Shown: piece after piece, positions 791 through 8,478 of the stretch | Layout of the letters: each line of letters starts with the position of its first letter | How positions within the stretch are numbered: the stretch's first letter is position 1 | Source of the DNA: a virus | Lineage: Duplodnaviria > Heunggongvirae > Uroviricota > Caudoviricetes | Reading direction: 5' to 3' (one strand) | Virus record (IMG/VR): IMGVR_UViG_3300032286_000505 | Span: 64,001 to 90,549 of that record | Length of the DNA: 26,549 nt | Translations under genes and position numbers: made by a program | Notes under the pieces: generated by a model | What the model saw: only the letters and a program-made list of their open reading frames with translations | What the model was told of the DNA's origin: nothing | The model's database searches: none

Positions 791-907
791 GCCGCTGTCG
801 TCTAATGGTTAGGACACTTATAAAAGTGACTCTGCAAGAGTACGTTCAGCAATTTAAAATTCCATTCGAAGGAAGTGATGGAGGTTCGAATCCTTCCAGC
901 GGCACCA
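791..907 (+). ncRNA. tRNA-like RNA (TCG anticodon loop) carrying a 42-nt insertion with the CAGCAA helix motif in permuted order (motif copy 1)
   Basis: Acceptor GCCGCTG/CAGCGGC-A-CCA, D and T arms intact. Deleting 818-859 (or 820-861) gives a 75-nt cloverleaf with stem CTTCC/GGAAG. Insert contains GTGACTCT-GCA-AGAGTAC-GTT-CAGCAA. Confidence 0.8.
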
Positions 908-2977: not shown

Positions 2978-3002
2978 ATAATTAATTTGAACTCTCAAGA
3001 TG

Positions 3003-3010
3003 TATAAATA
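3003..3010 (+). promoter_or_regulatory. T4-type late promoter motif
   Basis: TATAAATA 20 nt upstream of the HNH start, followed by a GGAGG RBS. Confidence 0.55.
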
Positions 3011-3029
3011 AATACATCGGAGGTTCGAA

Positions 3030-3542
3030 ATGAAAATATGTCCAAAGTGTAATACAGAGCACGAAAAATCTGGAAAATACTGTTGTAGAAGTTGTGCTAA
3101 TAGCAGATCTTTTACAGCAGAATCAAAAGAAAAAAAGCGCAACAAAACATTGGCATTTTGGTCTCAGTTTGATGATGCTGGAAGAAAAGAGCACCATAAA
3201 AAGAAAATGGCGTTGTATGATTTTGACGAACATCAAAGGCGAGTACAAGAAGCAAATAGAAAACGAGAATGGAGTAAACCTTACGAAGAAATGAGTCATT
3301 CATCGGTTCGTAAAAGATTACTACATGAACGAAATCACACTTGCGAAGAATGCGGAACAGGCAGTGAATATAACGGTAAGCCGTTAAGTTTAGAACTAGA
3401 CCACATTGATGGAAACAATAAAAATAACAAGATTGAAAATTTAAGAATACTTTGTCCAAATTGTCACTCACAAACTCCAACGCACAGATCAAAGAATATT
3501 AAATATAAAAGATTGTTAGTAGAAAAGAATATTGGCATATAG
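3030..3542 (+). CDS. Free-standing HNH homing endonuclease with N-terminal Cys cluster
   Basis: CEECG...LELDHIDGNNKNNKIENLRILCPNCH HNH motif; N-term CPKC...CCRSC; sits between tRNA genes. Confidence 0.9.
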   Translation: MKICPKCNTEHEKSGKYCCRSCANSRSFTAESKEKKRNKTLAFWSQFDDAGRKEHHKKKMALYDFDEHQRRVQEANRKREWSKPYEEMSHSSVRKRLLHERNHTCEECGTGSEYNGKPLSLELDHIDGNNKNNKIENLRILCPNCHSQTPTHRSKNIKYKRLLVEKNIGI

Positions 3543-3643: not shown

Positions 3644-3728
3644 GCGGGTGTGGCGAAATTGGTAGACGCACCAGATTTAGGTTCTGGCGCCGCAAGGCGT
3701 GTCGGTTCGAGTCCGACCTTCCGCACCA
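3644..3728 (+). tRNA. tRNA-Leu(TAG), class II (second TAG isodecoder)
   Basis: GCGGGTG/CTTCCGC, loop TT-TAG-GT, variable arm CGCC-GCAA-GGCG, A73, CCA. Confidence 0.95.
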
Positions 3729-3744
3729 AATTAAATGAGTAATT

Positions 3745-5115
3745 ATGATTATAGATTGTTTCACGTTTTTTAATGAGTTAGACATCCTAGAGGGACGATT
3801 AGAATATCTCTACGATCAAGTAGACTATTTTGTCATTGTAGAAGGGAATATTACTCATACAGGTAAACCAAAACCTTTGAATTTTCTAAATAATATTTCT
3901 AGATATAAACCTTATCTAGATAAGATCATGTACTTTCCCTGGACATGTGATACAACTAATATGAAGTTTGATCGACCCAAAACAGTTGATTACGGTTCTT
4001 CAAATTGGCAGTTAGAAAACAAACAAAGAAATCATATTTCGGAAGCCTTGAAGTTTTTTGATCATGAAGATATTTGTTTGATCGGAGACGTTGATGAGAT
4101 TCCTAGCAAGCGAGCACTTTACGAGATTAAGAATCTGTTAAAGTTCAATGCTGCGGTAGTTATAGAACAAGAAATGTTTGCCTATAATCTAAATCAAAAA
4201 CAGTTTAGGCCCTGGGCAGGTACAGTGGCTACAAAAGTAGGCATTGCATTATCTCAGACTCCACAGATCATTAGAGATAAGCGTTGGGGAGAAATGCACA
4301 TAGTTAGAGAATCTGGCTGGCATTTGACCTATTGGGGTGGCATAGAAAAAGTACAAGAAAAGATTACTAACTTTGCACATCAAGAATTAGTTGATGACAA
4401 TATCAGTAGTTTAAGTTATATTAAATCTCGTGTCGATACTGGACAAGATTTGTTTGGTAGGAACTTGCCTTATCATAAAGCAGATCCTTACAAAGAGCCT
4501 GTAGATTTTTTACGTGCATTTGGCAGGTATGTCGGAATTCATGTTGACCCTAAACTGATCGCACCTTATGCAGATACTGTAGAAGGTTGGTTTGGTCTTG
4601 ATGATATGAGTTTCTATACTTTTGCCTACGATCAATTGCCTAGCAATTGTCACATTGTAGAAATTGGTTCTTGGAAAGGACGTAGCTCAAGCCATATGGC
4701 TGTTATGATAGCCAATGGTAATAAACAGATCAAGTTTGATTGTGTTGACACTTGGGAAGGTAGCGAAGAGCACCAAGCCAATGCAAAGTTTGAAGACCAA
4801 GACGTTTTAAATAACTCTTTGTATAATACGTTCCTAAAGAATATGGAACCTGTTAAGGGGTATTTTGCGCCCATTCGAGCTACTAGTTTAGGTGCTGCCG
4901 AGCTATATGCAGACGCTAGCCTAGATTTTATTTTTATCGATGCAGCCCACGACTATGATAATGTTCGAGCAGACATTATAGCATGGGCTCCAAAGTTAAA
5001 ACCCGGGGGAATGTTGTCGGGACACGACTATCCATTTCCTGATGTAGAACGTGCAGTAACAGAATTAATAGGTCCAGTTAACGTAATCGGACGTTGCTGG
5101 TACATAAGGAAATAA
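3745..5115 (+). CDS. Glycosyltransferase family 17 fused to a class I SAM methyltransferase (Methyltransf_24-like)
   Basis: GT17 N-term MIIDCFTFFNELDILEGRL...GDVDEIP...GWHLTYWG; C-term VEIGSWKGRSS, DFIFIDAAHDY, GGMLSGHDY. Confidence 0.82.
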   Translation: MIIDCFTFFNELDILEGRLEYLYDQVDYFVIVEGNITHTGKPKPLNFLNNISRYKPYLDKIMYFPWTCDTTNMKFDRPKTVDYGSSNWQLENKQRNHISEALKFFDHEDICLIGDVDEIPSKRALYEIKNLLKFNAAVVIEQEMFAYNLNQKQFRPWAGTVATKVGIALSQTPQIIRDKRWGEMHIVRESGWHLTYWGGIEKVQEKITNFAHQELVDDNISSLSYIKSRVDTGQDLFGRNLPYHKADPYKEPVDFLRAFGRYVGIHVDPKLIAPYADTVEGWFGLDDMSFYTFAYDQLPSNCHIVEIGSWKGRSSSHMAVMIANGNKQIKFDCVDTWEGSEEHQANAKFEDQDVLNNSLYNTFLKNMEPVKGYFAPIRATSLGAAELYADASLDFIFIDAAHDYDNVRADIIAWAPKLKPGGMLSGHDYPFPDVERAVTELIGPVNVIGRCWYIRK

Positions 5116-5860: not shown

Positions 5861-5919
5861 AGGTTAATTACAGCTATACACAATGGCGACTGCTAGGTCA
5901 CTAAACTAGTATTAACCTG
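5861..5919 (+). ncRNA. Helix-CAGCWA motif RNA, minimal copy (copy 2)
   Basis: AGGTTAA(5861-67)-TTA-CAGCTA ... A-TTAACCT(5912-18)-G; internal GACTGCTAG. Confidence 0.7.
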
Positions 5920-7316: not shown

Positions 7317-7339
7317 GCCAGCGAGACTTGGAAGTCAGA
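7317..7339 (+). pseudogene. 5' fragment of a disrupted tRNA (acceptor 5' strand + short D arm)
   Basis: GCCAGCG-A-GACT-TGGA-AGTC; GCCAGCG is complementary to CGCTGGT at 8092-8098. Confidence 0.7.
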
Positions 7340-7940
7340 CTCGTTTCCATCCGCTCTTAGCGTATGCAGGTACTTGATTTGATTTGACAGTTTTAAGCAT
7401 ACTATCTTTAATTAATACAACATCTTTATAAGATTTGGATTTTTTAGGCTTGCGTAGAGTTTTGCCCGAAGCATAGTTTGCAGCTCGTTTTAGGGCGCCG
7501 GCTTTGCCTCTAGCAGATTGCTCTTCCGAAGATAGTTTATTAAACAATTGAGCATCTTTGTATGCCGAAACACTCCATAGTTGCTTCATTGCTTTAGAAA
7601 TAGATTCTCTACGTTGTAGTTCTGCTGTGGGGTTCTTAGAACATAAGCGAGGAGACGAAACTGCTTGGTTTAATACCATTGGATTAGTTACCGCTTTTAT
7701 ACGAGATAAAACTCTTGTTTCGTGTAATCTTGCTTCCTCGTAAGATTGAAACTTTTGTCTTACTTTGAATTTAAAGTTTTCGATTGGTTCTGCTTGAAGC
7801 ATTTGCTTTACAAGTTTAGAAGAAGAAAAATATGTTGTTCCAATATCAATTGTTGTTGATTTACGAACACCATAATAGATTTTGTTAGTTGGTAGGTGTT
7901 GAATTGAATAAGTATATGCGTTCATATACATATTTATCAT
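7335..7940 (-). CDS. GIY-YIG (Seg-like) homing endonuclease
   Basis: YTY...KIYYGVR (GIY-YIG variant), YFSSS, conserved E and N downstream; real start probably 7931 or 7925; stop codon supplied by the tRNA fragment. Confidence 0.78.
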   Translation of the reverse strand: MINMYMNAYTYSIQHLPTNKIYYGVRKSTTIDIGTTYFSSSKLVKQMLQAEPIENFKFKVRQKFQSYEEARLHETRVLSRIKAVTNPMVLNQAVSSPRLCSKNPTAELQRRESISKAMKQLWSVSAYKDAQLFNKLSSEEQSARGKAGALKRAANYASGKTLRKPKKSKSYKDVVLIKDSMLKTVKSNQVPAYAKSGWKRV

Positions 7941-7966: not shown

Positions 7967-8057
7967 ACCTCTGTAGTTTAATGGTAAAACAGCGGATTTA
8001 TATCCCGTAGCAACAGATAATTGGTTAATGTGGGTTCGACTCCCGCCGGAGGTACCA
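7967..8057 (+). tRNA. tRNA with TAT anticodon (nominally Ile) and long variable arm
   Basis: ACCTCTG/CGGAGGT, loop TT-TAT-AT, 21-nt variable region AGCAACAGATAATTGGTTAAT, A73, CCA. Confidence 0.82.
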
Positions 8058-8058
8058 A

Positions 8059-8102
8059 TAGATAATATCAGTGAGAGGGTTCGATCCCCTCCGCTGGTAC
8101 CA
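8059..8102 (+). pseudogene. 3' fragment of the disrupted tRNA (variable remnant, T arm, acceptor 3' strand, ACCA)
   Basis: GAGGG-TTCGATC-CCCTC-CGCTGGT-A-CCA; pairs with 7317-7323. Confidence 0.72.
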
Positions 8103-8107
8103 TTTTT

Positions 8108-8223
8108 AGGATACATGCAGCAACGTCATTTATGACATGTTGGTTCGATTCCAACTCCACGCTTTTGCGTAGATCGCTCAATGGTAGAGCAATGGCTTAC
8201 ACGCCATCGAAAAAGGTATCCTG
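8108..8223 (+). ncRNA. Helix-CAGCAA motif RNA enclosing a circularly permuted tRNA-like domain (copy 3)
   Basis: AGGATAC-ATG-CAGCAA; hairpin GTCA/TGAC; T arm GTTGG-TTCGATT-CCAAC; acceptor TCCACGC-TTTT-GCGTAGA; D arm GCTC-AATGGTA-GAGC; hairpin ATGGC/GCCAT; GTATCCT-G. Confidence 0.85.
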
Positions 8224-8229
8224 TTTTAT

Positions 8230-8359: not shown

Positions 8360-8478
8360 AGGTTCTTTTCAGCAATCTTATTAAAATCTTTCTGTAAAAA
8401 AGACGGGCCAGGTTCGAATCCTGGGCACTGCTTGGTCAGCGGTGTTGGTGTAGTGGTAGCACAAAAAATGAGAACCTG
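8360..8478 (+). ncRNA. Helix-CAGCAA motif RNA enclosing a complete circularly permuted tRNA with GTA anticodon loop (copy 4)
   Basis: AGGTTCT-TTT-CAGCAA; anticodon arm TCTTT-CTGTAAA-AAAGA; T arm CCAGG-TTCGAAT-CCTGG; acceptor GCACTGC...GCGGTGT closed by a loop; D arm GTGT-AGTGGTA-GCAC; AGAACCT-G. Confidence 0.88.

Follow-up and report, generated by a model that had tools for sequence, protein, structure and literature searches.

A tRNA-topology RNA in a phage tRNA array as a probable Y-like partner of a Ro60-like DUF2828 protein

The element analyzed here lies at positions 791-907 (+ strand) of a 26,549-nucleotide (nt) stretch of phage DNA, corresponding to positions 64,001 to 90,549 of IMG/VR virus record IMGVR_UViG_3300032286_000505; this whole stretch is referred to as the window. 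It is a 117-nt cloverleaf in which a 42-nt insert (818-859) breaks the anticodon stem's 5' strand, and it is considered together with other RNAs that carry the same insert module and with a gene for a DUF2828 protein, also in the window. The element sits in a tRNA array, in which the CCA of a tRNA-Leu ends 7 nt before it and a tRNA-Val starts 5 nt after it. The contig (90.5 kb) was rated 26% complete by CheckV, and the phage is for that reason taken to be a jumbo phage. ARAGORN made 45 tRNA calls across the contig and none for 791-907. The Rfam tRNA model (RF00005; gathering score 29 bits) does recognize the element, with 47.1 bits at 791-904 (model positions 1-71), skipping 53 nt in the anticodon arm; the RNA has no contiguous anticodon stem of 5 base pairs (bp), as the 5' strand is broken by 42 nt between 819 and 862. 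A previous, sequence-only reading had described normal tRNA ends with CCA and an insert made of an A-rich linker, a helix around a GCA loop, GTT-CAGCAA and TTTAAAA, and all of these are found in the sequence, as follows (the open units mentioned are the module-bearing RNAs described further below):

791-797, + strand: acceptor stem, 5' strand GCCGCTG, pairing with 897-903
800-815, + strand: D arm GTCT / AATGGTTA / GGAC with the elbow GG, from the Rfam tRNA alignment
817-819, + strand: outer anticodon stem, 5' strand CTT, after N26 (A816) and before the insert, pairing with AAG 873-875
820-825, + strand: A-rich linker ATAAAA leading into the hairpin (the stretch reads ATAAAAGT(G)), from the sequence
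826-843, + strand: handle hairpin GT-(G828 bulge)-ACTCT, loop GCA, AGAGT-AC, a bulged 7-bp helix, with compensatory changes in relatives
844-852, + strand: NTN-CAGCAA motif, here GTT CAGCAA, also present after the 5' helix strand of ten open units of the same genome
853-861, + strand: T/A-rich linker TTTAAAATT (TTTAAAA plus TT), in which TT 860-861 can compete with TT 818-819 for A873-A874
862-872, + strand: inner anticodon stem CC/GG and 7-nt loop ATTCGAA, anticodon TCG at 866-868; the frame A-T-NNN-A-A is found in most family members, with a varying triplet
873-875, + strand: outer anticodon stem, 3' strand AAG, partner of 817-819
880-896, + strand: T arm GGAGG / TTCGAAT / CCTTC, from the Rfam alignment and family covariation
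897-907, + strand: acceptor 3' strand CAGCGGC, discriminator A904 and encoded CCA (905-907), from the sequence and the Rfam alignment

Conservation of this architecture was then evaluated in other viral sequences. An exact-pattern scan with the Arg anticodon arm returned one true ortholog (L005) and two chance matches, and a looser version of the pattern added chance matches only. L005 has the same Arg(TCG) body, and its hairpin reads ATCCT/AGGAT where the window has ACTCT/AGAGT, i.e., two compensatory pair changes with the bulged G kept. A scan for the capped module, on the other hand, yielded many tRNA-like genes with the same insert; with a stricter pattern, in which the T loop was required, 42 viral loci were retained, with at least 33 distinct full-length sequences. 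A covariance model (R1) built on 22 insert-bearing genes (alignment A1) gave 97-130 bits for 25 insert-bearing genes and less than 56 bits for several hundred ordinary tRNAs of the same loci. In the family alignment, 97.1% of the cells are paired, two-sided changes are seen in 18 of 28 pairs, and neither any of 500 shuffles nor any slid register came close, bearing in mind that the alignment was fitted to the model, which favors structure, and that the columns concerned are ungapped beside the D stem and in the hairpin. All seven acceptor pairs hold in 25-26 family members, six of them with double changes, and the D-stem pairs are kept in 100% of the family. Blastn of the 791 region against cultured phages recovered the neighboring ordinary tRNAs only, and a typical family member used as query found Synechococcus phage BUCT-ZZ01.

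Within the insert, CAGCAA is invariant in alignment A1, and an A-rich stretch of 6-9 nt occupies the linker site in all members, as it does before the 3' helix strand in open units, whereas the linker that follows CAGCAA ranges from 7 to 13 nt and is variable in sequence. The handle helix is ATCCT/AGGAT in L005 and most members, AATCT/AGATT in L157, CATTCT/AGAATG in BUCT-ZZ01 and CAAACT/AGTTTG in Cronobacter phage S13, so that in the more distant phages T-CAGCA/CTGCA stays while the helix beside it is rewritten. In most members the hairpin is capped by a GNNA-type tetraloop with free middle letters. The 3' end is CCA in most of the family and CAA in 4 of 33 members. Selection on the module, as proposed by the sequence-only reading, is therefore well supported by the compensatory changes in L005, by the separation of the family from plain tRNAs with R1 and by the covariation; rather than showing a variable or missing insert, relatives keep it together with its helix and CAGCAA. 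No insertion-less ortholog of the same body was found among all the loci examined, which is little informative, as most of them had been fetched via the insert itself. Four capped-form relatives are aberrant (L134 6156-6270, L157 2376-2502, L188 265-357 and L220 6976-7106): among them, one lacks the D arm, one has an AT-rich stretch replacing the anticodon arm, one consists of acceptor and module only, and in one an additional hairpin precedes the module.

The point at which the insert enters the cloverleaf is also marked by covariation. The trinucleotide that follows N26 changes together with the 3' end of the anticodon stem (CTT/AAG, CGT/ACG, ACT/AGT and CAG/CTG), and pair 27-43 is CG in 15, UA in 6, AU in 4 and GC in 1 of 26 members. 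Full 3/3 pairing is offered by this upstream trinucleotide in 17 of the 26 members, and by the letters that immediately precede the inner CC in only 7 of 26. A second group (e.g., L138, L145 and L186) has G-TTA upstream and a full 5-bp stem downstream of the insert. Judging from the aligned sequences, the upper part of the anticodon stem remains joined to the D stem in most members, the arm branching off between positions 29 and 30, a split-stem arrangement that would keep the tRNA core intact. RNAalifold and single-sequence folding both failed to recover the anticodon arm, and no consistent helix was found between the two linkers of the insert, for which pairing was sought by eye and with RNAalifold.

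The same module occurs elsewhere in the genome in a different topology. Ten open units were found on the + strand of the contig, six of them inside the window (starting at 5861, 8108, 8360, 12918, 14398 and 14571); in each, one strand of a 7-bp helix (AGGWTnn) is followed by NTN, CAGCWA and a variable payload, and then by an A-rich stretch, the complementary strand and G-T. These RNAs make up a phage helix-NTN-CAGCWA family linked to DUF2828, as defined in the present analysis. Two of the ten, at 8108 and 8360, hold a circularly permuted tRNA-like payload. The units that bear on the argument, together with the DUF2828 gene, are:

8108-8222, + strand: open unit with a permuted tRNA-like body, matching the Rfam YrlA model end to end (8108-8225) at 31.8 bits, below the gathering score of 69
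8360-8477, + strand: open permuted unit with helix AGGTTCT/AGAACCT, TTT-CAGCAA, anticodon arm (GTA), T arm, closed acceptor and D arm
12918-12969, + strand: small open unit, separated by 25 nt from the DUF2828 gene downstream, with the Rfam model Dicty_Class_I_RNA as top, sub-threshold match (20.6 bits)
12995-14386, + strand: gene for a DUF2828 + DUF7788 protein of 463 amino acids (Pfam), with a predicted Ro60/TROVE-like fold
14398-14813, + strand: two open units directly downstream of the DUF2828 gene (14398-14561 and 14571-14813), an arrangement repeated in relatives L006-L022

All elements of the helix-NTN-CAGCWA family, namely the 7-bp helix, NTN, CAGCWA and the A-rich opposite strand, are found in the 791 RNA in permuted order: its insert has the parts of an open unit in identical circular order, with the handle helix capped by a loop and the acceptor stem open. 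The insert had been described from the sequence as an exact circular permutation of the 8360 RNA, which holds for the order of the parts, while the letters differ. Similarly, the proposal that the module sits at nearly the same tRNA position in both topologies stands as far as the module itself is concerned, but its entry points are distinct, at 29/30 in the 791 RNA, at 26/27 in the 8360 RNA and after an anticodon-like hairpin in the 8108 unit. A TTAAAAT said to be shared just before the anticodon arm is a real similarity at that site, though unconserved in relatives (TTCATTT in L005). The 8360 RNA and the other permuted relatives have no free acceptor end. Most module copies, moreover, are stand-alone RNAs of 50-60 nt without an enclosed tRNA.

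We then focused on the protein encoded next to the open units. By sequence, the DUF2828 protein has no significant match among PDB chains, and Pfam TROVE does not match it; its likeness to Ro60 emerges only by fold comparison. An AlphaFold model built with 22 homologs (predicted local distance difference test, pLDDT, 78.5) has Ro60/TROVE proteins, aligned over its full length, as all of its 13 best PDB matches (e.g., 9kop, 9l5y, 2nvo and 1yvp, with E-values from 2e-8 to 2e-3 and template modeling (TM) scores of 0.5-0.58), including Ro60 of Thermus phage phiLo and Deinococcus Rsr; below the top 13, only bare von Willebrand factor A (vWA) domains are found. Pfam describes DUF2828 as a family of eukaryotes and viruses. 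Homologs were found in 711 cultured phage records, where they are often labeled 'RNA-binding protein' or 'Ro-like RNA binding protein', and these records include Felix O1-like, Listeria P100-like, Campylobacter and KVP40-like phages.

The association between gene and module is recurrent. Among 80 viral loci fetched via the DUF2828 protein of the window (54-95% identity), open units are present on the gene strand at 72, with 156 units as opposed to 8 on the opposite strand, and they mostly abut the gene. The capped, tRNA-topology form may also lie close by: Cronobacter phage S13 has two capped copies 500-700 nt after its DUF2828 gene, Synechococcus phage BUCT-ZZ01 (ON615601) has two at 200-400 nt after it, and in record G026 a capped copy ends 72 nt before the gene. 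The S13 copies (NC_028773; 3395-3518 and 3525-3640 of locus L233) are entered in RefSeq as 'tRNA-Ser' (121 nt) and 'tRNA-OTHER' (113 nt). In BUCT-ZZ01 (locus L230), three open units lie upstream (in the 1050-1410 region) and two capped ones downstream (2995-3241) of DUF2828, all unannotated, the motif of the capped ones being CTGCAA. As for co-occurrence, DUF2828 is present in 25 of the 41 records with the tRNA-topology form, most of which are less than 15% complete, and in all three complete genomes (369-425 kb). These three (G003, G014 and G032, holding loci L113, L163 and L220) have each one capped unit (E<=1e-10), one DUF2828 gene and one gene for RtcB, mutually non-adjacent. RtcB is thus present in 3/3 complete related genomes, while the 90-kb contig, which covers just 26% of its genome, yielded neither RtcB, nor an Rnl2-type ligase, nor Pfam TROVE. 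The tie to the DUF2828 protein that had been suspected from the window is strengthened by the neighborhood at 72 of the 80 loci, by the co-occurrence and by the Ro60-like predicted fold, and the DUF2828 protein is presumed to be the binding partner of the module RNAs.

Altogether, we consider it rather probable that 791-907 encodes an unspliced, tRNA-topology Y-like RNA, i.e., a tRNA mimic with a docking arm for the phage Ro60-like DUF2828 protein. The RNA would be transcribed within the tRNA array and released by RNase P and 3' trimming like a tRNA, an excision suggested by the full acceptor stem, D/T elbow and CCA that it retains. The 42-nt insert would form a side arm, in which a bulged 7-bp hairpin stands beside the unpaired CAGCAA and A-rich strands; it would leave the 5' strand of the anticodon stem between 29 and 30, with the CTT/AAG pairs above keeping the core continuous. 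The arm could then serve as a docking site for the Ro60-like ring, and the tRNA body as an effector module that mimics a particular tRNA, tethering the protein to tRNA-recognizing factors or offering a decoy anticodon arm. The setting is probably a conflict over tRNA cleavage and repair, the complete genomes having RtcB.

Several observations weigh against this Y-like RNA reading, the first being one of distance, as 12 kb separate the 791 RNA and the DUF2828 gene within the window. Computed removal of 818-859 gives, as had been noted before, a 75-nt cloverleaf with the stem CTTCC/GGAAG and the loop ATTCGAA, with TT at both junctions of the insert (818-819 and 860-861). Downstream of the insert the anticodon stretch reads TTCC-ATTCGAA-GGAAG, and nearest-neighbor energies prefer the local 4-bp hairpin 860-863/871-874 (-28.8 kcal/mol) over the split-stem three-way junction (-23.9 kcal/mol), although such energies are poor at multi-branch junctions and blind to bound protein, and thermodynamics alone is insufficient to choose between the two. 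The covariation of the upstream trinucleotide cannot separate a docking arm from a spliced insert, because a spliced tRNA needs the same pairing. An encoded CCA and a canonical U33/A37 loop frame are likewise compatible with a working tRNA. In addition, none of the matches that the 791 RNA and the open units give with the models for YrlA and Class I RNA reaches its threshold. Finally, the excess of anticodon change reported below has a modest significance, being suggestive rather than strong.

Comparison with known systems places the 791 RNA nearest to Y RNAs, specifically YrlA. YrlA, a Y RNA bound by Rsr/Ro60, has a tRNA-like domain, and in more than 250 bacteria and phages its gene neighbors that of Ro60 (Chen et al. 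2014, PMC4201824), and in Thermus phage phiLo a phage Ro60 binds the phage Y-like RNAs Yrl1 and Yrl2 (PMC12135203). As in YrlA (RF02553), a candidate protein-binding helix by an internal loop is combined with a tRNA-like D/T elbow and acceptor, with RtcB in the same genomes; a gene with a predicted Ro60 fold lies 12 kb away in the window and is adjacent in BUCT-ZZ01, S13 and G026; the YrlA-type tRNA-like domain is represented in the 791 RNA by the D-loop GG, the T-loop TTCGAAT and a covarying acceptor stem. Unlike YrlA, however, the 791 RNA ends at the acceptor stem with CCA, its candidate binding stem being the capped hairpin 826-843, which is the reverse topology; it keeps a complete anticodon arm; its loop motif is NUN-CAGCAA, where YrlA has a CGAA-type motif; and the presumed partner protein belongs to DUF2828, not Pfam TROVE. 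With RF02553, the 791 RNA reaches 17.6 bits, on 876-937 (T arm) only, and the 8108 unit 31.8, the gathering score being 69. On three points, therefore, the 791 RNA falls outside the YrlA kind: its ends lie outside the binding stem, it scores far under the threshold, and both motif and protein family differ.

A second likeness is to the Class I RNAs of dictyostelids (RF01414), which start with AAG and end with CUG(U) (PMC7919456). There too, a short stem links the 5' end to the 3' end, being directly followed by a ...UACAGCAAU motif. The Rfam Class I consensus, GaUcuC-CUUACAGCAAU...GagAuC-UG, is the top, sub-threshold Rfam match of the open unit, at 12919-12970. Class I RNAs are recognized by a terminal stem with a CUUACAGCAA-type motif and a score of at least 41.5 bits, and the unit at 12919-12970, with 20.6 bits over the full model length, stays outside them. 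The 791 RNA differs in holding stem and motif as an internal capped hairpin, and Class I RNAs are of 42-65 nt, without a tRNA body, so far known from Dictyostelia only and bound by an RNA recognition motif (RRM) protein, Rnp1A/CIBP, as known binder. In this regard, head-to-tail arrays of open units (...AGTATCCTG-TAT-AGGATACATCCAGCAA...) with a period of 65-76 nt were observed on contigs labeled GVMAG, i.e., giant-virus metagenome-assembled genomes (L117, L121, L127, L128, L132, L136, L156, L161, L168, L169, L198 and L208). The module is thus repeated in tandem on contigs assigned by binning to giant viruses of eukaryotes, a possible bridge from the RNAs of the phages to Class I RNAs of Dictyostelium.

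Other comparisons concern tRNA genes proper. The occurrence of one motif both as a tRNA insertion and at the joined ends of a permuted gene recalls the intron-containing, split and permuted tRNA genes with a bulge-helix-bulge (BHB) motif in Archaea, Nanoarchaeum and the red alga Cyanidioschyzon, and non-canonical introns of archaea can insert in the anticodon stem, e.g., at 29/30. In contrast to BHB genes, no BHB can be drawn here, no splicing endonuclease was found in related genomes, the host is bacterial and the module copies mostly stand alone. Like the stable RNA species 1 and 2 of phage T4 (rnaC and rnaD), which have a tRNA-like 3' part and no assigned function, the 791 RNA is tRNA-sized or larger and lies in a phage tRNA operon; rnaC and rnaD were nevertheless rejected as relatives, as they have no helix-NTN-CAGCAA module and R1 gives 20.7 bits, on the T-arm region of rnaC only. 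With class II tRNAs (Leu, Ser and bacterial Tyr) the 791 RNA shares an extra helical arm from the core, which is presumably why RefSeq calls an S13 copy a 121-nt tRNA-Ser, but its arm is at 29/30 of the 5' strand of the anticodon stem, not at 44-48, and its motif is shared with non-tRNA RNAs.

Among the alternatives, the one that survives best, while still unlikely, is that of a working, aminoacylated tRNA which keeps its arm, the arm recruiting the Ro60-like protein to protect, mark or regulate the tRNA, e.g., by shielding the anticodon arm from host anticodon nucleases until release. The intact cloverleaf with its encoded CCA, U33 and A37 agrees with it, as do the position in a tRNA operon, at distances of 7 and 5 nt from the preceding and the following tRNA, and the fact that the S13 copies are already tRNA genes in RefSeq. 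However, an arm of about 40 nt in the middle of the anticodon stem and a bound 52-kDa protein should clash with the ribosomal decoding site, as inferred from known ribosome-tRNA structures, and the bodies do not track the anticodons, the same body occurring with Asp, Arg, Ser, Thr, Asn or Ile triplets. In L108 (GTC) and L207 (TCT), the triplet differs on bodies that are nearly identical, with 3 other differences in 118, and further swaps are seen between L223 (GTT) and L225 (GAT) and between L186 (TGA) and L219 (TGT). In 11 non-overlapping sister pairs, change affects 6 of 37 triplet sites (0.16 per site) and 88 of 1297 sites elsewhere (0.068; one-sided Fisher p = 0.04). Ser triplets occur on bodies without the long variable arm, and the anticodon loop has 8 nt in 9 of the 26 aligned members, L138 and L144 being redrawable with a 5-bp stem and a 7-nt loop. 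A20 is an identity element of E. coli tRNA-Arg, and the D loop of the 791 RNA is without it. The triplet is also duplicated by a plain tRNA, here and in most loci with enough sequence. Moreover, the permuted relatives in the same genome, having no free acceptor end, cannot be charged, and charging is for that reason not essential to the family. Taken at the level of sequence, this argues that decoding is not the point of the tRNA-topology RNAs.

A further alternative, which we regard as a little more doubtful, is that the 42 nt are a new, protein-dependent tRNA intron: an endonuclease would cut out 818-859 (or 820-861) and a ligase, e.g., RtcB, would join the halves into a 75-nt tRNA-Arg(TCG), with the helix/CAGCAA module marking the cut sites and the permuted 8360 RNA matured by the same cut-and-join, in parallel to archaea and red algae, whose intron-containing, split and permuted tRNA genes share one motif. 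The perfect 5-bp stem and 7-nt loop left by the deletion are in line with it, and so are the complementarity of the upstream trinucleotide to the 3' strand, the presence of one module in closed and permuted tRNA bodies alike, the encoded CCA and RtcB in 3/3 complete related genomes. RtcB fits an RNA repair role, as in the bacterial rsr-yrlA-rtcBA context (PMC7790460, PMC4201824), and would equally serve splicing. Nevertheless, as the sequence-only reading had already noted, there is no clear bulge-helix-bulge, which the junction pairing confirms: AAAA/AAAG, after the 3-nt bulge that follows 817-819, cannot pair with TTCC at the start of the 3' exon, nor is an hBHBh' arrangement found, in which a 4-bp helix lies between 3-nt bulges of opposite strands at the two junctions, the intron letters ATAAAAG after the 5' junction being unable to pair with TTCC. 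The tRNA-splicing endonuclease domain PF01974 is absent from five related records, three of them complete, and was positive in four archaeal controls; such an endonuclease is not to be expected from a bacterial host. The product would be redundant with the plain tRNA-Arg(TCG) at 17789-17863, which is present as had been pointed out before and has the same anticodon as the 791 RNA on an unrelated body. Several members would yield 8-nt loops, and the 8108 unit would not yield a tRNA with a 7-nt loop. Splicing of the 791 RNA is hence unlikely, and the spliced 75-nt product is a hypothesis without support. A group I or II intron, already discounted from the sequence, was rejected on size, with 42 nt against the more than about 200 nt of a catalytic core of P3-P9 or domains I-VI, and on the Rfam scan, which matched no intron family at E up to 1.

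The module could also act more generally as a processing signal, with the Ro60-like protein and RtcB in a cut-and-rejoin pathway that strips the arm and re-circularizes permuted genes, a scenario we hold to be quite improbable. If true, it would give bacterial viruses an equivalent of the bulge-helix-bulge splicing of archaea and would imply tRNA genes hidden from host nucleases or gene-finding defenses. A second, milder possibility in this vein is that the RNAs are decoys with exchangeable anticodons, trapping host anticodon nucleases on the Ro60-like ring. Since most module copies stand alone, with no tRNA enclosed, a role as splice signal is hard to reconcile with them, whereas a protein handle fits. 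Much less credible still is a two-piece RNA (split tRNA), in which the hairpin loop would be cut by the activity that makes the AAG... start and ...CUGU end of open units, the handle helix and acceptor holding the halves together: the closed hairpin does look as if an end had been fused to a start, reading ...CCTG-NN-AAGG... in relatives and CTG-C-AAG in the 791 RNA, and the motif-sharing Class I RNAs of Dictyostelium begin with AAG and end with CUGU (PMC7919456), but most members have a stable GNNA-type tetraloop, which suits a structural cap better than a cleavage site. Finally, a decaying, functionless tRNA pseudogene with an insertion, for which the missing ARAGORN call and the redundancy with 17789 might speak, can be set aside, given the handle helix rewritten with its pairing kept, the compensatory changes in every stem, the insert helix included, the invariant motif, and conservation across at least 33 distinct sequences, the phages concerned having DUF2828 proteins of only 45-60% identity.

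Additional observations were made in the tRNA array and its surroundings. Three tRNA-Leu genes, at 441-518 (CAA), 618-695 (TAA) and 706-783 (TAG), are 78 nt each, with enlarged D loops and short variable regions, and stand beside class II Leu genes at 525-609 and 3644-3728. A tRNA-Ile(TAT) at 7967-8057 (91 nt) has, in the Rfam alignment, an 18-nt, unpaired-looking variable region that starts with GCAACAG. Between it and the 8108 unit, an orphan tRNA 3' half at 8062-8103 comprises a T arm (GAGGG/TTCGATC/CCCTC), the 3' acceptor strand and ACCA; it was rejected as half of a split tRNA, as the window has no complementary 5' acceptor strand outside coding DNA. The array also houses two paralogous fusion genes of glycosyltransferase-17 and methyltransferase (1011-2426 and 3745-5115), and endonuclease genes of the HNH (3030-3542) and GIY-YIG (7335-7940, - strand) types lie between the tRNA blocks. 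Outside the window, the contig has a permuted gene resembling transfer-messenger RNA (tmRNA) at G000:C1:11523-11872, with the tag peptide ANDEAFLMAA (ARAGORN).

In the literature on DUF2828, phage tRNA introns and phage Ro60/Y RNA, neither a tRNA-topology Y-like RNA nor an RNA partner of DUF2828 was found described. As for annotation, genes of this form are at present missed, or entered as 'tRNA-OTHER' or as an over-long 'tRNA-Ser', and the occurrence of the form in the cultured phages S13 and BUCT-ZZ01 makes the Y-like RNA reading directly testable. The change of triplet between close relatives points to mimicry of particular tRNAs, hence to a phage-host conflict over tRNA cleavage and repair. 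A large uncharacterized family, DUF2828, is tied to a defined RNA motif, and Class I RNAs of social amoebae, themselves unexplained, are marked by this motif too. Ro60 and Y RNAs are conserved from bacteria to humans, and the 791 RNA would add a new form, in which protein handle and tRNA body are combined in the natural tRNA topology, with a free CCA end and a complete anticodon arm.

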